A stretch of 64,000 nucleotides of DNA from Escherichia coli (GTDB lineage Bacteria > Pseudomonadota > Gammaproteobacteria > Enterobacterales > Enterobacteriaceae): the NCBI RefSeq assembly GCF_046105845.1, contig NZ_CP151004.1, one strand, 5' to 3'. The notes under the pieces are model-generated. The model had not been told where the DNA came from, searched no databases, and worked only from the letters and a program-made list of their open reading frames with translations. A program made the translations under genes and the position numbers. Of this stretch, positions 17,315 to 48,564 are shown one piece after another; the stretch's first letter is position 1; each line of letters begins with the position of its first letter.

Positions 17315-17362
17315 AGTCGTGCTGGGATGGGCATACAAAATGCACGTTCTCGGCAGTCATCA

Positions 17363-30357: not shown

Positions 30358-30383
30358 CAACATATCAGGACGGAATGATCGCA

Positions 30384-30995
30384 ATGAACATGCCAATGAC
30401 CGAAAGAATAAAAGCAGGCAAGCTATTTACCGATATGTGCGAAGGCTTACCGGAAAAAAGACTTCGTGGGAAAACGTTAATGTATGAGTTTAATCACTCG
30501 CATCCATCAGAAGTTGAAAAAAGAGAAAGCCTGATTAAAGAAATGTTTGCCACGGTAGGGGAAAACGCCTGGGTAGAACCACCCGTCTATTTCTCTTACG
30601 GTTCCAACATCCATATAGGCCGCAATTTTTATGCAAATTTCAATTTAACCATTGTCGATGACTACACGGTAACGATCGGTGATAACGTATTGATTGCACC
30701 CAATGTTACTCTTTCCGTTACGGGACACCCTGTACACCATGAATTGAGAAAAAACGGTGAGATGTACTCTTTTCCGATAACGATTGGCAATAACGTCTGG
30801 ATCGGAAGTCATGTGGTCATTAATCCAGGCGTCACCATCGGGGATAATTCTGTTATTGGCGCGGGTAGTGTCGTCACAAAAGACATTCCACCAAACGTCG
30901 TGGCTGCTGGCGTTCCTTGCCGGGTTATTCGCGTAATAAACGACCGGGATAAGCACTATTATTACAAAGATTATAAAGTTGAACCTTCAGTTTAA
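30384..30995 (+). CDS. lacA: Galactoside O-acetyltransferase (hexapeptide family)
   Basis: 203 aa from ATG 30384 (MNMPMTERIKAGKLFTDMCEGLPEKRLRGKTLMYEFNHSHPSEVEKR...). Confidence 0.96.
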   Translation: MNMPMTERIKAGKLFTDMCEGLPEKRLRGKTLMYEFNHSHPSEVEKRESLIKEMFATVGENAWVEPPVYFSYGSNIHIGRNFYANFNLTIVDDYTVTIGDNVLIAPNVTLSVTGHPVHHELRKNGEMYSFPITIGNNVWIGSHVVINPGVTIGDNSVIGAGSVVTKDIPPNVVAAGVPCRVIRVINDRDKHYYYKDYKVEPSV

Positions 30996-35762: not shown

Positions 35763-37011
35763 TGTTAGCCTCCACATGCGTCATTGCTGCTGTCGTTTTG
35801 CGATTCAAAATCGGGTTAAGGATCAGATAGCTCAGCGCGCCACCTAATACCGCGTTGACCGGAACAATACCCGGTAACCAGTGGCCTGCGGCAATCCCCA
35901 GCGCGACCGCCAGAATCGCCACCCAATTGACACTCATCATACGCGTGGTCGCAAAGTGCTCATAGCGGCGACGGTTCATCAGATAGTCAGCGATGATCAC
36001 GCCCCCTACCGGAGGAATAGCTGCCGAAAGGAAGGTCAGCCAGCCGACAAAATTGTTATACAGCCATAATGCGCAGACCGTACCGATAATACCGTTGATT
36101 ACCGAAAGGGTTTTGCTCGACATACCAGTAATGTTGGCGAAACCTAAGCCCGACGCATAGAGCGCGTTATCGTTGGTGGTCCAGATATTCAGCCCCAGCA
36201 CCACAATCGCAGGCAGCAGCAGACCCTGAGCAATCATCACATCAGAGATATCCGCCATCCCCAGTGCCGCCGCGCCCGCTGCACCGAAAATAAACATCAA
36301 CGAGTTGCCGAGGAAAAAGGCCACCATCGCCACCAGCACCGCCAGTTTGGCATTACGACCAAACCGGACAAAGTCAGCGGTGAGCGTGCCCGCACTGATA
36401 AATGACCCCACAACCAGCGCCAGCGCGACATTGAAATCTAACGGTTGTGCGGGAACGACCGCTTTTAATGCGTCCAGGCCGCCCATGCCGTTAACGGCCA
36501 ACCACACGGAATAACCGCCAAGACAGGCGATAGCCGGAACTGCAATCACCGAAAGAACCATCAGCGCCGAAATGCCAAAGAAGACGGTGACGGTCATCAG
36601 TAAACCGGAGACGGCAATCAGCAAATTAATATCCAGCCCGGTTGCCTTGCCCACCGGAATGGCAAACATCGCCACGCCAACGCCAAACCAGCCAACCTGG
36701 GTGCCGCCCAGCAGCAGTGAAGGCAGCCATGAGCCTTTAACACCAAAAGAGAAGCGAGCAAGAAGATGAGTGGTCAGGCCGGTTTTTGCGCCAATGTAAC
36801 CAAGAAATGAAGTGTAAATACCGAGGAGAAGATTACCGATGAGGACTGCGAGGAAGAAATCATGATAGCTAAGACCGGTTCCGAGAGTGCCGCCGGTCCA
36901 CATACTGGCGGAAAAGAAGGTTAATCCCAGCATGACGAACGTCAATGCCAATACCCCTTTCCGCGCCGACTGCGGGACTGGCCCTTGGCTAAAGTTGTTA
37001 TCTTGCGACAC
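35752..37011 (-). CDS. codB: Cytosine permease (NCS1 family)
   Basis: 419 aa; GTG start with G-rich SD; 11-nt overlap with codA. Confidence 0.94.
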
Positions 37012-37079
37012 GAAATTCCCCCTTTTTGCTGTCTGAAACCCAAAAAATCCGCCGCATTCTATTCATCTGAAGATAAAAA

Positions 37080-37093
37080 GCAATCGTTTTCGT
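37080..37093 (-). promoter_or_regulatory. Candidate PurR box upstream of codBA
   Basis: Minus strand reads ACGAAAACGATTGC, close to the PurR consensus ACGCAAACGTTTGC-type palindrome, about 70 bp upstream of the codB start. Confidence 0.4.
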
Positions 37094-37171
37094 AGGGAAA
37101 TATATTTTTTATATGAATGAGTGCAAAAAGGTGGGGGAAAAATTATCGGTGTAAAAACAGTGGGTAGCCAT

Positions 37172-37242
37172 AATAAGACGCGGTAAGCGTCGCATCAGGC
37201 ATCGGCGCATGGTGTCGGATGCGCCAGGCGACGCATCCGACA
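37172..37242. repeat. REP-like element plus 11-bp-stem palindrome downstream of prpE
   Basis: ATAAGACGCGGTAAGCGTCGCATCAGGCATCGGCGCATGG, then TGTCGGATGCG-N8-CGCATCCGACA (37213-37242); the hairpin is a near-copy of the one at 31013-31042. Confidence 0.5.
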
Positions 37243-37247
37243 ATAAC

Positions 37248-39134
37248 CTACTCTTCCATCGCCTGGCGGATCTGATCCAACGACGCAGGATCATCAATGG
37301 TCGTCAGATCCCCAGGATCGCGTCCTTCACAAATCGCCTGGATCGTGCGGCGCAGCATTTTTCCGGATCGCGTTTTCGGCAATTGCGAGACAAACCAGAC
37401 GTGCGCCGGGCGACCAAAGTTGCCAATCTGGCTGTCCACCAGCGCCATAATCGCCTTCTCTTGCGAATGCGCCACCTCGCGGTCTTCCAGACTGTCGCTC
37501 TCTTTCGGAATGACAAACGCCACCGCCACCTGCCCTTTCAGCGCATCTTTCACCCCAACCACCGCCACTTCGGCAACGCCCGGATGACTGGAGATACTCT
37601 CTTCAATCTCGCGCGTCCCCAGCCGATGCCCGGCAACGTTAATCACATCGTCAGTGCGCCCGAGAATAAAGTGATAACCGTCAGCATCGCGGATACCCCA
37701 GTCAAAAGTGGCGTACACCGGACGGGAAAACAGCGACCAGTACGTCTTCACAAAGCGGTCGTCGTCGCCCCAGATGGTCTGAATACAGCCCGGCGGCAGC
37801 GGCCCTTCTACCACCAGCATCCCTTTCTCGTTGACGCCACACGGTTCGCCGGTGACTTCATTAAGCAACTGCACGTTATAGCCATACATCGGCACGCCGG
37901 GGCTTCCCAGACGCGTCGGCCTGTCGTCCAGACCGCGAGCAATCGCCATAATCGGCCAGCCGGATTCGGTCTGCCAGTAGTTGTCGATGACCGGCACATC
38001 CAGCGTATTGCTCACCCAACTGGCGGTCGGCTCGTCCAGCGGTTCTCCAGCCAGATAGAGCACTTCCAGCGACGAGAGATCGTGTTTGCGAATTTCAGCG
38101 GTAGGGAATTTTTTCAGCACGCGTATGGCGGTCGGCGCTGAGAACATGCGGCTAACCTGATATTTCTCGACGATTTTCCACCACACGCCGCAGTCCGGCC
38201 AGGTCGGTAATCCTTCGTAAACGATAGTCGCCATCCCCGCCAGCAGCGGCGCGTAGACGATATACGAATGCCCCACCACCCAGCCGATATCCGAAGCACA
38301 AAAGAACACACCGCCCGCTTTGCCGCCAAAAATGGTGTCCATCGAGGTCGCCAGCGCCACCGCATATCCGCCGACGTCACGCTGCACGCCTTTAGGTTTG
38401 CCGGTCGTGCCGGAAGTGTAGAGAATGCAGGAGGTTTCGTTGGATTCCAGCCACGCCACTGGCACCCGCGCGCCGATGTGTTGATGGCGCAACGACGCGA
38501 AATCGACATCCCGCCCGCTGACGCGCGCCATTTTCGCCAGCCCGCGATCCACCAGTAAAACGTGGCGCGGCTGATGCTGCGCCTGACTTATCGCATCGTC
38601 GAGTAATTTTTTATAGGGAATGATTTTGCCACCGCGCGCTCCGGCATCAGCCGAGACAATCAGCACCGGTTTAGCGTCATCAATTCGCGCCGCCACGCTG
38701 TGCGAGGCAAATCCCCCAAACACCACCGAATGAATAGCGCCAATGCGCGCGCAGGCCAGCAGGGTAATATGCGCTTCGGCAATCATCGGCATATACACCA
38801 GCACCCGATCGCCACGCTGCACGCCCAATGAACGCAACATTGAGGCCACCGCGTTCACTTCGTCATGCAGCTGACGAAAGGTAAAGGTGCGCTCTTCTTC
38901 TGTTTCCGAAGAGACGGCAATCAGCGCCAGCGCCTCTGGCTGTTTCTCCAGCCAGCGGTCGATAGCGTTGTGGCACAAGTTGGTTCGGCCTTCACAAAAC
39001 CAACGGGCAAACGGCGGATTGCTGTGATCAAGCGTTTGCGTAAAGGGCGTCTGCCAGTCAATACGCCGGGCCTGCTCGGCCCAGAACTTCTCCGGTTCGT
39101 TAATCGAACGCTGATAAAATTCGCTAAAAGACAT
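37248..39134 (-). CDS. prpE: Propionate-CoA ligase (propionyl-CoA synthetase)
   Basis: 628-aa acyl-CoA synthetase, begins MSFSEFYQRSINEPEKFWAEQARRIDW. Confidence 0.95.
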   Translation of the reverse strand: MSFSEFYQRSINEPEKFWAEQARRIDWQTPFTQTLDHSNPPFARWFCEGRTNLCHNAIDRWLEKQPEALALIAVSSETEEERTFTFRQLHDEVNAVASMLRSLGVQRGDRVLVYMPMIAEAHITLLACARIGAIHSVVFGGFASHSVAARIDDAKPVLIVSADAGARGGKIIPYKKLLDDAISQAQHQPRHVLLVDRGLAKMARVSGRDVDFASLRHQHIGARVPVAWLESNETSCILYTSGTTGKPKGVQRDVGGYAVALATSMDTIFGGKAGGVFFCASDIGWVVGHSYIVYAPLLAGMATIVYEGLPTWPDCGVWWKIVEKYQVSRMFSAPTAIRVLKKFPTAEIRKHDLSSLEVLYLAGEPLDEPTASWVSNTLDVPVIDNYWQTESGWPIMAIARGLDDRPTRLGSPGVPMYGYNVQLLNEVTGEPCGVNEKGMLVVEGPLPPGCIQTIWGDDDRFVKTYWSLFSRPVYATFDWGIRDADGYHFILGRTDDVINVAGHRLGTREIEESISSHPGVAEVAVVGVKDALKGQVAVAFVIPKESDSLEDREVAHSQEKAIMALVDSQIGNFGRPAHVWFVSQLPKTRSGKMLRRTIQAICEGRDPGDLTTIDDPASLDQIRQAMEE

Positions 39135-39173
39135 AATGCTCTCCTGTTGAACTTACGCCTTACCGCTGTTTGC

Positions 39174-40625
39174 TTAAATGACGTACAGGTCGAGATACTC
39201 ATTGACCGGCATCTGTTCCAGGCGAGTTCTGTCGAGAGAAACCTCCAGAATGCGCTGCTGTTGGCGAGTCGGGAACTGGCGCGCGAGATTGATTTTGAAT
39301 TTATCGACCAGTTTCGGAATACCATCCTGACGGCGGCGAGCATGACCAATGGGGTACTCCACCACCACTTCTTCAAATCGTGTGCCGTCGGTGAACTCAA
39401 GGGTAATGGCATTGGCGATGGCACGTTTTTCCGGGTCGTGGTAGTCAGCGGTAAATGCCGGATCTTCAAAGCAATTGATCTTCTCGCGCAGGGCGTCGAT
39501 GCGTTTATCTTGCGCAACGTTGTCCTCGTAATCTGCCGCCGTTAAGCGTCCGAACAGCAGCGGGATCGCCACCATGTACTGAATGCAGTGATCGCGGTCT
39601 GCCGGGTTATTGAGCGGTCCTTTTTTGTCGATGATGCGAATACAGGCTTCGTGGGTGCGAATGGTCACTTTTTCGATATCTGCCGCCGTTTTGCCTGCTG
39701 CCTGCATCTGTTCATAGAGCGTCATCGCTGCTTCAACTGCCGTCTGGGAGTGGAACTCCGCCGGGAAGGAGATTTTGAACAGCACATTTTCCATCACGTA
39801 AGAACCGTACGGGCGCTGGAAGCGGAACGATTCACCTTTGAAGGAGACGTCGTAGAAGCCCCACACAGGCGCAGTCAGGGCTGACGGGTAACCCATTTCG
39901 CCCGTTTTCGCCATCAGTGCCAGACGTACCGCGCGGGAAGTGGCATCGCCCGCCGCCCAGGATTTACGCGTGCCGGTGTTCGGCGCATGGCGATAGGTGC
40001 GCAACGACTGACCGTCCACCCACGCCAGCGAAACGGCGTTGAGGATTTCCTCGCGGGTCAGGCCGAGCATTTCTGCAACCACGGCGGTGGAAGCCACTTT
40101 CACTAACAGAACGTGGTCGAGGCCGACGCGGTTAAAGGAGTTTTCCAGCGCGATGCAGCCCTGTATTTCATGGGCTTTGATCATTCCGGTCAGCACCTGT
40201 TTCATGGTCAACGGCGCTTTGCCGCTGGCGACCGCGTTGCGCGAAAGCCAGTCCGCCGTTGCCAGAATGCCACCGAGGTTGTCGGAAGGATGGCCCCACT
40301 CCGCCGCCAGCCAGGTATCGTTGAAATCGAGCCAGCGGATCATCGCGCCGATGTTAAATGCCGCCTGGACGGGGTCGAGCTGGAACTGAGTTCCGGGGAC
40401 GCGCACGCCGTTAGGTACGACGGTGCCAGGAACAATTGGCCCCAGCAGTTTTTTACAGGCCGGGTATTCGAGAGCTTCCAGACCGCAGCCGAGCGTGTCG
40501 AGCAGGCAGTAATGTGCGGTCTCGTAGGCCACTCTGGAGCTGATTTCGTAGTTCATCACGTAATCGACGATATCAACGATTTCACGATCAAATTCCGGGC
40601 GGATGTTATTGATTTGAGCTGACAT
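39174..40625 (-). CDS. prpD: 2-methylcitrate dehydratase
   Basis: 483 aa, begins [30 protein letters not shown]. Confidence 0.95.
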
Positions 40626-40658
40626 TGGGTACGTTTCCTTATTGTTATTCGTAGAGGT

Positions 40659-41828
40659 TTACTGGCGCTTATCCAGCGCGACAAACTGGCGGTCTTCCGG
40701 TCCAACATAATTGGCGGAAGGACGGATAATTTTGTTGTCCTGACGTTGTTCGATAATGTGCGCCGCCCAGCCGGTGACGCGGGCGATAACAAACAGTGGT
40801 GTGAACATCTCGGTGGGAACGCCCATCATGTTGTAGGAAACAGCGGAGAACCAGTCGAGATTGGGGAACATCTTTTTGCTCTCCCACATCACCGTTTCCA
40901 GGCGATCGGCGATGTTGTACATCTTCAGCGAGCCGCCTTCCTGCGAGAGCTGCTTCGCCACACGTTTGATCACCTGATGACGCGGGTCGGCGATGGTATA
41001 AACCGGATGACCAAAACCAATGACCACTTCTTTGTTTTCCACCCGCTTGCGGATATCGGCTTCGGCTTCGTCCGGCGTTTCGTAGCGTTGCTGGATCTCC
41101 AGCGACACTTCATTCGCCCCGCCGTGCTTCGGCCCGCGCAGTGCACCAATCGCGCCAATAATCGCGGAATACATATCAGAGCCGGTGCCCGCAATCACCC
41201 GGCTGGTAAAGGTGGAGGCGTTAAACTCGTGTTCGGCGTACAGCACCAGCGAAATATGCATCGCCTTTTCCCAGCTTTGCGACGGCTTTTCGCCATGCAG
41301 CAGATGCAGGAAGTGACCGCCGATGGAGTCGTCATCGGTTTCCGGCTGAATGCGTTCGCCGTTGTGGCTGTAGTGATACCAGTAGAGAAGAATCGAGCTA
41401 AGTGACGCCAGCAGTTTGTCGGCAATATCCCGCGCGCCAGAGACGGTATGCCCCTCTTTTTCTGGCAGCGTGCAGCCGAGCGCGGAAACGCCGGTGCGCA
41501 TAACATCCATCGGGTGCGACGCCGCCGGTAAGGCTTCCAGCACGGTACGCACGTTAGCCGGTAAACCGCGCAGGGCTTTCAGTTTCGTTTTGTAGGCGGC
41601 GAGTTCGTCACGGGTCGGCAGTTTGCCGTGGATCAGCAGGTGCGCCACTTCTTCAAATTCGCAATGTTCCGCCAGATCAAGAATATCGTAGCCGCGGTAA
41701 TGCAGGTCGTTGCCGCTTTTACCCACGGTGCAGAGCGCCGTATTGCCCGCCGGAACGCCGGATAGTGCCACAGATTTTTTCGGTTTAATGACATGGGTAC
41801 TGTTTTGCAGGATCGTTGTGTCGCTCAT
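40659..41828 (-). CDS. prpC: 2-methylcitrate synthase
   Basis: 389-aa citrate-synthase family protein. Confidence 0.95.
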
Positions 41829-41872
41829 GTTGTCCTCGTCATTTGTAGGGTCGAGATATTTTTCGTTGTGTT

Positions 41873-42763
41873 TTATTTCGCCTGGCTACGGGCAAACAGG
41901 TCGTCGAGCTTCTCTTCGTACTGGTAGTAGTTGATGCTTTCGTACAGCTCGTTGCGGGTTTGCATGGTGTCGATGACGCTTTTCTGCGTGCCTTCCTGGC
42001 GCAGGACGTTGTAGACATGTTCGGCGGCGCGGTTCATGGCGCGAAACGCTGAAAGCGGGTACAGCGCCATTGCAACATGGGCACTGCGTAATTCATCGGT
42101 AGTAAACAGCGGTGTTGCGCCAAATTCGGTAATGTTGGCGAGGATCGGCACCTGCACCGCATCGGCAAACTGGCGGTACATGGCGAGTTCGGTAATCGCC
42201 TCCGGGAACAACATCTCGGCACCCGCTTCAACATAGGCCTGCGCACGCTCAATCGCCGCATCCAGCCCCTCTACCGCCAGCGCATCGGTGCGCGCCATGA
42301 TCACAAAATCAGGATCGGTTTTCGCATCCACCGCCGCGCGGATCCGATCCACCATCTCCTCTTTCGAGACGATCGCTTTGTTCGGACGATGACCGCAGCG
42401 TTTCGCACCAACCTGATCTTCAACATGCAATCCTGCCGCACCGGCTTTAATCATCGATTTCACGGTGCGCGCCACGTTAAAGGCCGAAGAACCAAAACCG
42501 ATATCCGCATCCACCAGCAGCGGCAGCGAACAAACGTCGGTGATACGGCGAATATCTGTCAGCACGTCATCAAGAGTAGAAATACCGAGATCCGGCAGCC
42601 CCAGCGAACCTGCTGCCACGCCACCGCCGGAAAGATAAATCGCCTGATATCCGGCACGCTGCGCCAGAAGCGCATGGTTAGCGTTGATGGTGCCGACAAT
42701 CTGCAATGGATTTTCTTTAGTCAGTGCAGCGCGAAACGCTTTACCTGGAGAGTGTAGAGACAT
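41873..42763 (-). CDS. prpB: 2-methylisocitrate lyase
   Basis: 296-aa PEP-mutase/isocitrate-lyase family protein. Confidence 0.95.
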
Positions 42764-42810
42764 AGCCCATCCTTTGTTATCAACTTGTTATTTGCGTTGA
42801 TAAAGACAAA

Positions 42811-42825
42811 GCAAGGGGTGTGCCA
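42811..42825 (-). promoter_or_regulatory. Sigma-54 (-24/-12) promoter of prpBCDE
   Basis: Minus strand reads TGGCAC-ACCCC-TTGC (GG-N10-GC spacing), about 36 nt upstream of the prpB ATG; prpR next door encodes a sigma-54 activator. Confidence 0.7.
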
Positions 42826-43001
42826 CAATTGCCTTAATAAAATTAAATGTTTAATTTCAATTTGTTAGCAATATAGTCATGAAGTAATCCGCAAATATGC
42901 GTTTCAGTTAACGTTTCAGGCAATGTTTCACCGCGTTTCATTGCAACAATTATGAAACAAGACTAAACCCAATATTCGGTTTCTTAACTTTGCGGTGCGC
43001 T

Positions 43002-44588
43002 ATGGCACATCCACCACGGCTGAATGACGACAAACCGGTTATCTGGACGGTATCTGTAACGCGCCTGTTCGAGCTGTTTCGCGATATCAGCCTCGAGTTT
43101 GATCACCTGGCGAATATCACCCCTATTCAGCTTGGCTTTGAAAAAGCGGTGACCTACATCCGCAAAAAACTGGCAAACGAACGGTGCGACGCCATCATCG
43201 CTGCTGGCTCTAACGGCGCATATCTTAAAAGTCGCCTGTCAGTGCCGGTTATTTTGATTAAACCGAGCGGCTACGATGTGTTACAGGCACTGGCAAAAGC
43301 CGGAAAGCTCACCTCTTCTATCGGCGTTGTCACTTATCAGGAAACTATTCCGGCGCTGGTGGCGTTTCAAAAAACCTTTAATTTGCGCCTCGACCAACGT
43401 AGCTACATTACCGAAGAAGACGCGCGCGGGCAGATTAACGAGCTGAAAGCTAACGGCACCGAAGCGGTGGTCGGCGCGGGGCTGATTACCGATTTGGCAG
43501 AAGAAGCCGGAATGACCGGAATTTTTATCTATTCCGCCGCCACCGTGCGCCAGGCATTCAGCGATGCGCTGGATATGACGCGCATGTCGTTACGCCATAA
43601 CACTCACGATGCCACCCGTAACGCCCTGCGTACTCGTTACGTGCTGGGCGATATGCTCGGTCAATCACCACAGATGGAACAGGTGCGGCAGACTATTTTG
43701 CTGTATGCCCGCTCCAGTGCGGCGGTGTTGATTGAGGGGGAAACGGGGACGGGCAAAGAGCTGGCGGCCCAGGCGATTCATCGGGAATATTTTGCCCGCC
43801 ACGATGCGCGACAGGGCAAAAAGTCGCATCCGTTTGTTGCCGTCAACTGCGGGGCGATTGCCGAATCGCTGCTGGAAGCAGAGCTGTTTGGCTATGAGGA
43901 AGGGGCGTTTACCGGCTCGCGACGCGGAGGACGCGCCGGACTGTTCGAAATTGCCCACGGCGGCACGCTGTTTCTTGACGAGATAGGCGAAATGCCTCTG
44001 CCATTGCAGACTCGGCTGTTACGAGTGCTGGAAGAAAAAGAGGTCACTCGCGTCGGCGGGCATCAGCCTGTTCCGGTGGATGTGCGGGTCATTAGCGCCA
44101 CTCACTGCAATCTGGAAGAAGATATGCGGCAAGGGCAGTTTCGCCGTGACCTGTTTTATCGGCTGAGTATTTTGCGTCTGCAATTACCGCCACTGCGTGA
44201 GCGAGTGGCGGATATTCTGCCACTGGCGGAAAGCTTTTTGAAAGTGTCTCTGGCTGCGCTCTCCGCCCCGTTTTCTGCCGCCTTACGCCAGGGGTTACAG
44301 GCAAGCGAAACCGTGCTGGTGCACTACGACTGGCCGGGCAATATTCGAGAACTGCGCAATATGATGGAGCGACTGGCGCTGTTTTTAAGTGTGGAACCGA
44401 CGCCGGATTTAACGCCGCAATTTTTGCAGCTGCTACTGCCGGAGCTGGCGCGCGAGTCGGCGAAAATTCCCGCTCCACGCTTACTGACACCACAACAGGC
44501 ACTGGAGAAATTTAAAGGCGATAAAACAGCAGCGGCGAATTATTTAGGCATAAGCCGGACGACGTTCTGGCGGCGGCTGAAAAACTGA
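43002..44588 (+). CDS. prpR: Sigma-54-dependent transcriptional activator of prpBCDE
   Basis: 528 aa from ATG 43002 ([15 protein letters not shown]...); AAA+ domain with GETGTGKE Walker A and GAFTGS; C-terminal HTH. Confidence 0.94.
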
Positions 44589-44688
44589 ACTGCCGAATGC
44601 AGCGCGAACGCTTTATCCGGCATAAATTTCAATAGATGATGATCACCGATAAACTTACGCATCGGGGATGTTTACATAGGTTTCAGAA

Positions 44689-44964
44689 TTACTTCTTCTT
44701 ATAAATATTTGCCGTGCCGTGGATCTTATTGTCAGTTTGACCAGAGGTCAGCACCAACACATCAGCCCCTTTTTCATCGGCTTTTTTGATCAAATCTTCT
44801 TTCGCATCTGCGGTCGACATTTCATTACTGGTTGAAATATCACCTATTTTTTCATATTGCGATTCAACCTTTTCAAATTCCGCTTTGGTCATTAATTCTG
44901 CGGCATAGACATTGGTAACGGCAAACGCTAACGCACCGACTAACATTTTAGAGATTATTTTCAT
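44689..44964 (-). CDS. yahO: Small periplasmic DUF1471-family protein YahO
   Basis: 91 aa with signal peptide ([21 protein letters not shown]). Confidence 0.85.
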
Positions 44965-45110
44965 ATTACGGCTCCAGAGTTGTTATCACACTATCACCCA
45001 CCGACATTATTGGGTTGATTAATAATTAGTTCAGTCAGGGCATAAACGCCAGTAACCGGAAATAAGACACTTTGTGATCTCTCTCGCACCCGATTATTTT
45101 TGGTAGAAAT

Positions 45111-45782
45111 ATGATGCAGTTAGTTCACTTATTTATGGATGAAATCACTATGGATCCTTTGCATGCCGTTTACCTGACCGTAGGACTGTTCGTGATTACT
45201 TTTTTTAATCCGGGAGCCAATCTCTTTGTGGTAGTACAAACCAGCCTGGCTTCCGGTCGACGCGCAGGGGTGCTGACCGGGCTGGGCGTGGCGCTGGGCG
45301 ATGCATTTTATTCCGGGTTGGGTTTGTTTGGTCTTGCAACGCTAATTACGCAGTGTGAGGAGATTTTTTCGCTTATCAGAATCGTCGGCGGCGCTTATCT
45401 CTTATGGTTTGCGTGGTGCAGCATGCGCCGCCAGTCAACACCGCAAATGAGCACACTACAACAACCGATTAACGCCCCCTGGTATGTCTTTTTTCGCCGC
45501 GGATTAATTACCGATCTCTCTAACCCGCAAACCGTTTTATTTTTTATCAGTATTTTCTCAGTAACATTAAATGCCGAAACACCAACATGGGCACGTTTAA
45601 TGGCCTGGGCGGGGATTGTGCTCGCATCAATTATCTGGCGAGTCTTTCTTAGTCAGGCGTTTTCTTTGCCCGCAGTGCGTCGTGCTTATGGGCGTATGCA
45701 ACGCGTTGCCAGTCGGGTTATTGGTGCAATTATTGGTGTATTCGCGCTACGCCTGATTTACGAAGGGGTGACGCAGCGGTGA
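45111..45782 (+). CDS. yahN: LysE/RhtB-family amino-acid exporter-like membrane protein
   Basis: 223-aa polytopic membrane protein. Confidence 0.85.
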   Translation: MMQLVHLFMDEITMDPLHAVYLTVGLFVITFFNPGANLFVVVQTSLASGRRAGVLTGLGVALGDAFYSGLGLFGLATLITQCEEIFSLIRIVGGAYLLWFAWCSMRRQSTPQMSTLQQPINAPWYVFFRRGLITDLSNPQTVLFFISIFSVTLNAETPTWARLMAWAGIVLASIIWRVFLSQAFSLPAVRRAYGRMQRVASRVIGAIIGVFALRLIYEGVTQR

Positions 45783-45798
45783 GCAGATAATTTACTCT

Positions 45799-46044
45799 CT
45801 ACGTAATCAACCTGATTTGCCGAATCCCGACCATCGGCGATGATAGCCCCCGTAATGCGTGGTCCTTATTTCCGATAAGTTTACTTGAGTCTTTAGCTTC
45901 CCATTTCAGCCCACTCTCCCCTGTGTGGGCTTTTTTCATTGCTCTGACCCGTCCTGAATAGCCAAACAATGGCAATGTTCCACTTTGCAGGGATGATAAT
46001 AAGGGGATCTGATTCAGAAGAGTTTTGAAAAGTTGGACCGCCAT
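45799..46044 (-). CDS. yahM: Small uncharacterised protein YahM
   Basis: 81 aa from ATG 46044 (MAVQLFKTLLNQ...); length and position match K-12 yahM as I recall; no recognisable domain. Confidence 0.5.
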   Translation of the reverse strand: MAVQLFKTLLNQIPLLSSLQSGTLPLFGYSGRVRAMKKAHTGESGLKWEAKDSSKLIGNKDHALRGLSSPMVGIRQIRLIT

Positions 46045-46456
46045 CGAGGCCTCGAACCCCGTACCATACAACAATCCTGGTTGTCGTCTGCTCTTCCTGA
46101 TGAGCTAATGGCGGTTTTTGATATGAGCCTTACAGCATATTTTCTGTCAGGCTTGAGTGCGATGCGTAAGATACAGAAAAGACCCCACACAAACATGATG
46201 GAATTATGATTTTTTTCATATGAATGTCAACCCACACATTCACAAAACATCTGCATGAGATCATTTTTTATACACCGTATAGCTGCGAAACCACTGCTGA
46301 TGCTTTTTTAAGCGAAGTGTCGCCGATCACAACAAAATATCGGCGAAAAAGGCGGTGGAATGCCATTTGGCATACGGATATACAGATGAAATGATCACCT
46401 GCTTTGCGATTCACTCTCTGGTGGAATAACAACTCGCAGGTGGACCCCTTTCTGAA

Positions 46457-47272
46457 CTAAAGAGTGTAGCGGATTTTAACGTGCTTATTTACAGGATAAT
46501 ATCTGTCACCTAATTCCTGCACTCTATTAGATATCCATTGATTTAATCGCGCATCATCTCTGTATGTTTTTACGTCCAGAACAGAGAGCAATAACATCAC
46601 CAGTGATTCAGGAAAAACAGGGTAGATATTTTTTAAGTGTAATAATAATCCATGCGCAAGCGCCTGCTTAATGGGTGCGTCGGTCTCCGGAATAGACGAC
46701 ATTTCGCGAAGCCATTTTTCCACATGCATACACTCTTTCCCTTTAGGGAAAAGTCTCAGCAAAGGCATATGGTGTTCAAGAAGAATACATTTGCAATCTG
46801 TTCGCACTGAATCGATAAACTGCACTAATTTCTTAAGCCCGGTAAAGCGTCCAGCCTGCACGTTTGCTTTAATATCAAGAAACGCATCATCCTGGTCATA
46901 TACCCAAACTGTCCCTTTTTGATTTTCAAGTATGCGAAAAACAAACTTAACCGGGTGATCAGGGTAATCCATCCAGTCATAAAACCCAGGGAAATCACTA
47001 AACTGCACATTTATGGTGAGTGCGTTATCGTCTGACCACTCACAGTCTCGTACGGCAGCCATGAGATGAATGAGTTTGTCATCATCGACTAAATCATCAC
47101 GACAATCATAAGGATAATCATAATATTGTTTAATCAAAACCTTGAATATATCGACACAGGAAACCAGGGAGCTTTTGATATCCTCTGGTAACTGATTGTT
47201 TTTAACCGTATTAAGTATGCTTTGTTGCGTATATGGCATCAAATTATTGTGCGGAGCTTTTAATGATATCAT
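46457..47272 (-). CDS. yahL: Uncharacterised protein YahL
   Basis: 271 aa; AT-rich ORF; no recognisable motif. Confidence 0.8.
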   Translation of the reverse strand: MISLKAPHNNLMPYTQQSILNTVKNNQLPEDIKSSLVSCVDIFKVLIKQYYDYPYDCRDDLVDDDKLIHLMAAVRDCEWSDDNALTINVQFSDFPGFYDWMDYPDHPVKFVFRILENQKGTVWVYDQDDAFLDIKANVQAGRFTGLKKLVQFIDSVRTDCKCILLEHHMPLLRLFPKGKECMHVEKWLREMSSIPETDAPIKQALAHGLLLHLKNIYPVFPESLVMLLLSVLDVKTYRDDARLNQWISNRVQELGDRYYPVNKHVKIRYTL

Positions 47273-47437
47273 CGCGATCTCTCTTAAATAAAAATAAACG
47301 TCGCAGATAATAAAGCTCTGATTAAACCAGGCACTATCAGAAATCGCTCATAACTAACGTGTGAAGTATTGTGTCCTGGAGGGAGTTAATTTAACAATTT
47401 GAATTTACGTTATAGGTTTTACTGCTACTTTGATATT

Positions 47438-47479
47438 ATTTCGCTCTCCTTAACTAAAAAGTTAAGTGGAGAGCGAAAT
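47438..47479. other. Stem-loop downstream of yahK
   Basis: ATTTCGCTCTCCTTAAC-TAAAAA-GTTAAGTGGAGAGCGAAAT, 36 nt after the yahK stop. Confidence 0.35.
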
Positions 47480-47514
47480 TAATATGTTAAACCACAGGAT
47501 ATTTATTAATTTTT

Positions 47515-48564
47515 TCAGTCTGTTAGTGTGCGATTATCGATAACAAAACGATATTTCACATCACCACGCAGCATTCGCTCATAGGCTTCATTAATTTGAT
47601 CGGCCCGAATCATCTCTATATCAGCCACGATGCCATGTTCGGCGCAAAAATCGAGCATCTCCTGAGTTTCTGGAATGCCGCCAATCATAGAGCCGGCTAT
47701 CGCGCGGCGTTTCATGATCAGGTTGAAAACTTCCGGCGATTTATGCGGTGTCGCAGGCGCACCAACCAGCGTCATGGTGCCATCGCGCTTCAGCAAGGTG
47801 GTAAAATCGTCGAGATTATGTGGCGCAGCTACTGTATTCAAAATGAAATCGAAACTCTTCAGATGAGCCGCCATCTCATCGGCATTGCGTGAGTTAACAA
47901 CTTCATCGGCCCCCAGGGCTTTTGCCGCTTCGCGTTTTGACTCCGAAGTGGTAAATGCCACCACATGTGCCCCCATCGCGTGGGCCAGCTTAATCCCCAT
48001 ATGTCCCAGACCGCCGATGCCAACCACGCCCACTTTTTTACCCGGCCCGGCCTGCCAGTGACGTAGCGGCGAGTATGTGGTGATCCCTGCACACAATAAA
48101 GGAGCCACCGCCGCCAGCTGCTCTTGCGGGTGACGAATACGCAGAACATATCGCTCATGAACGACGATCTGTTGTGAGTAGCCGCCCAGCGTATGGCCCG
48201 GTTCGTCCGGCGTCGGCGAGTTATAGGTGCCGGTCATGTGATCACAGTAGTTTTCCAGCCCGTCTTCACACTCTTCGCAATGTTTACAACTGTCGACAAT
48301 GCAGCCGACACCGACCAGATCGCCCGTCGCATGTTTTTCTACCTGATCACCAACGGCTACCACACGCCCTACAATTTCATGGCCCGGCACGCAGGGATAA
48401 ACCGTCCCCGCCCACTCGGAACGGACCTGGTGGATATCGGAATGGCAGACGCCACAGTAAGCGATTTCAATTTTGACATCATGCGGTCCCGGTTCACGCC
48501 TGGTAATATCCATCGGTTCCAGCGGTTGTTTAGCGGAATATGCACCAACAGCTTTGATCTTCAT
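47515..48564 (-). CDS. yahK: NADPH-dependent aldehyde reductase (Zn-dependent MDR alcohol dehydrogenase)
   Basis: 349 aa; Zn ligand motif GHEIVGRV and Rossmann GVVGIGGLGHMG; AGGAG RBS. Confidence 0.93.
   Translation of the reverse strand: MKIKAVGAYSAKQPLEPMDITRREPGPHDVKIEIAYCGVCHSDIHQVRSEWAGTVYPCVPGHEIVGRVVAVGDQVEKHATGDLVGVGCIVDSCKHCEECEDGLENYCDHMTGTYNSPTPDEPGHTLGGYSQQIVVHERYVLRIRHPQEQLAAVAPLLCAGITTYSPLRHWQAGPGKKVGVVGIGGLGHMGIKLAHAMGAHVVAFTTSESKREAAKALGADEVVNSRNADEMAAHLKSFDFILNTVAAPHNLDDFTTLLKRDGTMTLVGAPATPHKSPEVFNLIMKRRAIAGSMIGGIPETQEMLDFCAEHGIVADIEMIRADQINEAYERMLRGDVKYRFVIDNRTLTD

Follow-up and report, generated by a model that had tools for sequence, protein, structure and literature searches.

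A -24/-12 element upstream of prpB is very probably the PrpR-controlled sigma-54 promoter of the propionate-breakdown operon prpBCDE in Escherichia coli

The spacer between the divergent genes prpR and prpB was analyzed in a 64,000-nucleotide stretch of E. coli DNA (the window, which denotes this whole stretch). It contains a -24/-12 element on the minus strand that is, with very little doubt, the sigma-54 promoter of the propionate-breakdown operon prpBCDE, controlled by the neighboring activator PrpR. K-12 prpBp is the same promoter, and the Salmonella prpBCDE promoter is its orthologue. The recognition of PprpB as a sigma-54 promoter dates from the late 1990s, and it serves in biosensors and as the propionate-inducible expression system pPro. 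The promoter was thus already known and its detection is a correct rediscovery, which carries little weight as a discovery and has its value as a positive control: a reading of the bare sequence placed the element to the base and arrived at the same start site as the literature prediction. The inference is carried by context and conservation, not by the motif alone. The element and the features derived from it are as follows.

42810..42826, minus strand: sigma-54 -24/-12 promoter element GTGGCACACCCCTTGCT, with the core TGGCAC-N5-TTGC at 42825-42811
42824-42823 and 42812-42811, minus strand: the GG and the GC dinucleotide, respectively, within GTGGCACACCCCTTGCT
42799, minus strand: predicted transcription start (+1), 12 nt downstream of the C (42811) in the -12 GC
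42764..42798, with +1 at 42799, minus strand: predicted prpB 5' leader of 36 nt including +1, as deduced from the predicted start

The minus strand reads aattgTGGCACaccccTTGCtttgtc, with TGGCAC (42825-42820), ACCCC (42819-42815) and TTGC (42814-42811); AATTG flanks these on the upstream and TTTGTC on the downstream side. These are precisely the coordinates, 42811-42825, at which a preliminary description of this DNA had placed the motif. Extended by one base, the sequence TGGCACACCCCTTGCT (42825-42810, minus strand) shows no mismatch to the consensus TGGCAC-N5-TTGCW, and its GG and GC dinucleotides are 10 bp apart. The element lies on the same strand as prpB and points toward it, 48 nt upstream of the prpB ATG (42763). 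The preliminary description had called this the correct distance, which stands only in part: no fixed correct distance exists, but the resulting 36-nt leader is typical when compared with published intergenic sigma-54 sites (median 45, interquartile range 31-84).

The surrounding genes were assigned as listed below.

43002..44588, plus strand: prpR, sigma-54 enhancer-binding activator of 528 amino acids (NF011953, 1010 bits, cut-off 703)
41873..42763, minus strand: prpB, 2-methylisocitrate lyase, first gene of the operon (NF008455, 559.8 bits, cut-off 353)
40659-41828, minus strand: prpC, above the equivalog cut-off
39174-40625, minus strand: prpD, above the equivalog cut-off
37248-39134, minus strand: prpE, above the equivalog cut-off

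All five proteins (PrpR, PrpB, PrpC, PrpD and PrpE) exceed their NCBIfam equivalog cut-offs, and the layout, with prpR divergent from prpB-prpC-prpD-prpE, is the same as in K-12. PrpR consists of a PrpR_N ligand domain, a Sigma54_activat AAA+ domain (E = 1.5e-65), an AAA_lid_14 domain and a Fis-type HTH_8 domain, and carries the Walker A motif GETGTGKE, the sigma-54 contact loop GAFTGS and the Walker B motif FLDEIGEM. Its earlier designation as an AAA+ enhancer-binding protein is borne out by this architecture together with the equivalog score. In a different strain, E. coli 131 (NZ_CP093011.1), prpR is annotated as frameshifted (pseudogene) while the sigma-54 core and prpB are intact, which is an example of a regulator decaying ahead of its promoter.

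Published data on binding and expression come from K-12 and Salmonella and concern identical or orthologous sequences. The 17-mer at 42826-42810 is identical to site OS01 of the K-12 sigma-54 ChIP-seq dataset, whose motif GTGGCACACCCCTTGCT was recovered with a fold-above-threshold value of 17, with prpB as the downstream gene and a predicted start 36 bp before it (Bonocora 2015, PMC4591121, Table 1); at that time, the prpB promoter had the status 'predicted' in EcoCyc (PMC4591121). The binding of the element by sigma-54 holoenzyme is therefore taken from the literature on the identical K-12 sequence, and this match supports the proposed sigma-54 promoter in the prpB-prpR divergent region. An RpoN-holoenzyme genomic SELEX peak was also obtained in vitro in the prpR/prpB spacer (Shimada et al. 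2021, PMC8743547). ChIP-chip yielded a signal ratio of 11 at the homologous Salmonella site, TGGCATAGCCTTTGCTTT, and wild-type Salmonella expressed prpBCDE at a level 45-fold above that of the delta-rpoN strain (Samuels et al. 2013, PMC3844500). Reviews describe prpBCDE expression as requiring PrpR, sigma-54, IHF and the co-activator 2-methylcitrate and as being CRP-dependent in addition; the sources named there are Horswill & Escalante-Semerena 1997, Palacios & Escalante-Semerena 2000/2004 and Lee et al. 2005. For E. coli, growth on propionate counts as a phenotype that depends on RpoN.

The spacer measures 238 bp from start codon to start codon (prpB ATG at 42763, minus strand; prpR ATG at 43002, plus strand), a length shared with E. 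coli K-12. Of 5426 complete E. coli genomes, 5218 contain this spacer, and at least one of these carries it with 100% identity. The RefSeq annotation holds no feature within it. Upstream of the promoter, the following candidate elements were identified.

42901..42958, minus strand: candidate PrpR enhancer (UAS), GTTTCA/TGAAAC half-sites matching the published PrpR consensus CGTTTCATGAAACG
42958-42953, minus strand: GTTTCA half-site, starting at -159 from the predicted +1
42940-42935, 42930-42925, 42918-42913 and 42906-42901, minus strand: four TGAAAC half-sites, starting at -141, -131, -119 and -107
42841..42867, no strand assigned: AT-rich stretch, candidate IHF bending site at a presumed position between enhancer and promoter

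The half-sites at -159 to -107 are inside the range of approximately 80-200 bp for sigma-54 upstream activator sequences. In Escherichia, the PrpR enhancer forms an array in which four TGAAAC, spaced by 10, 12 and 12 bp, come after a single GTTTCA, and the enhancer in the window consists of half-sites only, with no contiguous palindrome. In the AT-rich stretch at 42841-42867, the IHF core WATCAANNNNTTR is matched three times, at overlapping positions and with one mismatch each. The pattern is degenerate, with 72 matches in the window versus 53 expected, and the stretch is not conserved in Citrobacter. A scan with the CRP consensus TGTGA-N6-TCACA (up to 3 mismatches) returned fewer matches than were found in shuffled sequences, and its sole spacer match overlaps the start codon of prpR. 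This simple consensus scan did not locate the CRP site that the literature describes. Between enhancer and AT-rich region, four differences from K-12 fall into a 20-bp stretch within 42868-42893 (minus strand), which reads TACTTCATGACTATATTGC in the window versus TAGTTCATGACTTTATCTC in K-12. E. coli strains vary in this stretch as well, and so does E. albertii, which suggests a linker without sequence constraint.

At sigma-54 promoters, the -12 GC sets the point where transcription starts within narrow limits. The preliminary description had predicted a start at about 42799. [quoted passage not shown] A Shine-Dalgarno sequence, AAGGA (42774-42770), precedes the prpB ATG by six nt. A reading in which the sigma-54 site is genuine but transcription starts several nucleotides away from 42799, or in which a second, weak sigma-70 promoter adds basal transcription of prpB, is unlikely. 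In its favor are the purely predicted status of the start, the slight leakiness reported for the prpR-PprpB expression system without inducer, and the limited power of the sigma-70 consensus scan, which cannot be sensitive because it missed the promoter of prpR, for which the 238-bp spacer is the necessary location. Against it stand the fixed distance from the -12 GC, the 45-fold drop of Salmonella expression without rpoN (PMC3844500) and the scan itself, as no sigma-70-like -35/-10 pair was found by consensus in either orientation in 42700-43060. No terminator was found by a scan of the same region.

According to Bonocora et al. (PMC4591121), sigma-54 occupies many of its sites without transcription taking place and perhaps without ever being productive there. 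This raises the question of whether the bound holoenzyme could act mainly as a closed-complex roadblock or architectural regulator of the divergent prpR promoter instead of serving as the promoter of prpB. Such a role is highly improbable because the element faces prpB with a typical 36-nt leader, because it lies approximately 175 bp from the prpR ATG and beyond the enhancer cluster, and because prpBCDE expression is strongly rpoN-dependent in Salmonella (PMC3844500).

The assignment as the prpBCDE promoter gains little from the motif itself. Exact TGGCAC-N5-TTGC occurs once in the 64-kb window when both strands are scanned, where 0.32 matches are expected by chance and at least one match was present in 28 of 100 shuffles. 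A weight matrix of 17 columns was trained on the 41 remaining intergenic sigma-54 sites published for E. coli (Bonocora et al.). With this matrix the prpB element reached 15.06 bits (training median 15.8) and ranked second in the window; windows simulated with a first-order Markov model contained on average 1.26 sites that scored at least as high. The sequence match by itself is within chance expectation and, as the motif alone does not exceed chance, significance has to be drawn from position, neighbors and conservation. The best weight-matrix match in the window, TTGGCATGTTCATTGCG (30380-30396, minus strand, 15.2 bits), lies antisense inside lacA and is absent from the published high-stringency sigma-54 ChIP-seq sites. 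Two further sigma-54-like matches are TTGGCGCGATTGGTGCA (41142-41158, minus strand, 14.7 bits), in sense orientation inside prpC, and TGGGCATACAAAATGCA (17328-17344, plus strand), which is identical to the published site OA01 with mhpR as its listed downstream gene.

Related loci were collected by a scan with PrpR against one genome per species, which also returned many matches to generic bEBP peptide patterns. Loci were obtained from E. albertii, two Citrobacter, two Photorhabdus, several Burkholderiales and Xanthomonas massiliensis; the Salmonella locus was not among the results and Citrobacter served as the nearest proxy. In 10 related loci prpB is divergent from prpR, and together with the window and K-12 this allowed the comparison of 12 spacers. 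On the strand of prpB, all 12 contain TGG(C/T)A-N6-NTGC, and the distance from the C of its GC to the ATG is 41-60 nt. TGGCA(C/T) and TTGC do not vary across the 12 spacers. The N5 spacers within the element differ between clades (ACCCC, ATATA, ATACA, GCGCC, GCTGC, GCCCC, GCGCA and ACACG) and, likewise, divergent E. coli strains carry substitutions in N5 (ACTCA, ACCCA) and none in TGGCAC or TTGC. As a control for specificity, the loose motif was counted on both strands of the ten related loci, and 10 of its 13 occurrences in 113.5 kb are the prpB site. Alignments of Escherichia and Citrobacter show conserved islands at the -24/-12 element, at a GTTTCAT-N10-ATGAAAC block and in part of the leader, while the stretch from enhancer to promoter is not conserved. 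Clusters of GTTTCA/TGAAAC are also found upstream of the promoter in Photorhabdus and Burkholderiales, and the Burkholderiales arrays are similar to those of Escherichia.

That the motif is a chance match without promoter function and that prpBCDE is driven from another promoter would fit the approximately 0.3 exact and 1.3 equal weight-matrix matches expected per 64 kb and the equally good lacA site missing from the published list, but is essentially excluded by the binding data and the conservation: sigma-54 binding to the identical sequence has been recorded in vivo (PMC4591121) and in vitro (PMC8743547), the element is kept in place in at least four independent clades while spacer and surroundings diverge, and the cognate bEBP gene and its putative binding sites adjoin.

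For the sigma-54 promoter of prpBCDE, general knowledge of enhancer-dependent transcription suggests the following course of events. The sigma-54 holoenzyme would wait at the -24/-12 element as an inactive closed complex. PrpR would be activated by 2-methylcitrate, which is made from propionate by PrpE and PrpC, and would then bind to or assemble on the upstream half-sites. Bending of the AT-rich spacer by IHF, at its presumed position, may bring PrpR into contact with sigma-54, and ATP hydrolysis would lead to the open complex and to a transcript that probably starts near 42799 with a 36-nt leader before the prpB ATG. Catabolite control might be added by cAMP-CRP.

K-12 prpBp shares the identical 17-mer GTGGCACACCCCTTGCT, the 238-bp spacer, the 36-nt predicted leader and the UAS half-sites with the window, and differs by the four substitutions between UAS and AT-rich stretch and by approximately 423 additional bp between prpB and prpC. 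The prpBCDE operon of Salmonella enterica LT2 has in common with the window the divergent prpR and the sigma-54 site upstream of prpB; the literature reports its dependence on rpoN, prpR and ihf, 2-methylcitrate as co-activator and the enhancer consensus CGTTTCATGAAACG. The Salmonella site TGGCAT-AGCCT-TTGC differs from TGGCAC-ACCCC-TTGC of the window in the -24 element and in N5. The enhancers differ as well, as judged from the published consensus and from Citrobacter as proxy: the Salmonella consensus is a palindrome, whereas the window contains one GTTTCA and then four TGAAAC. The second enhancer site of Citrobacter is a contiguous palindrome, GGTTTCATGAAACG, like the published Salmonella consensus. 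The Salmonella system is reported to be approximately 3-fold stronger, and the difference between the Escherichia array and the Citrobacter palindrome might be related to the weaker E. coli PprpB.

Two other sigma-54 systems can be compared. The E. coli atoDAEB operon (site OS21) is also a short-chain fatty-acid catabolic operon with a sigma-54 promoter; its site CTGGCACTCCCCTTGCT agrees with the prpB element in 15 of 17 positions and is followed by a 35-nt leader, but its activator is the response regulator AtoC, the enhancer sequence is another one and the context is not homologous. The archetypal enhancer-dependent sigma-54 promoter, glnAp2 with its activator NtrC, shares GG-N10-GC, a remote activator site and an ATP-dependent AAA+ activator, and differs in that NtrC is under the control of phosphorylation, in contrast to the small-molecule ligand binding of the PrpR_N domain in PrpR.

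The leader contains a block, TAACAAGTTGATAACAA (42790-42774, minus strand), that is invariant from Escherichia to Citrobacter and more conserved than most of the spacer. An exact match to the IHF core, TATCAACTTGTTA, lies on the plus strand at 42778-42790 and overlaps this block. The predicted +1 is straddled by an 8-bp inverted repeat formed by TTATCAAC (42803-42796) and GTTGATAA (42784-42777, both minus strand), and a tandem ATAACAA repeat is present in the leader region at 42774-42803. The leader RNA did not fold better than shuffled sequences (z = -1.39) and no Rfam family was matched in 41500-43300. It is conceivable, if rather doubtful, that the invariant block is a separate control element on top of PrpR and sigma-54; it might bind a protein downstream of the start, or act as an A-rich site for Hfq/sRNA or for translational enhancement.

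Over the 12 kb at 36000-48000, the window is 97-98.7% identical to sequenced E. coli (96.8-97.8% for K-12) and no complete RefSeq E. coli genome exceeds 98.7%, while for the 238-bp spacer taken by itself the identity to strain WP4-S18-ESBL-07 reaches 100%. This pattern suggests either a lineage with few complete genomes or a mosaic produced by recombination. The gap between prpB and prpC is approximately 44 bp in the window (41829-41872) versus 439 bp in K-12, for which pairwise alignment gave an insertion of approximately 423 bp, and this insertion is absent from seven of the eight best-matching E. coli genomes aligned to the 12-kb query.
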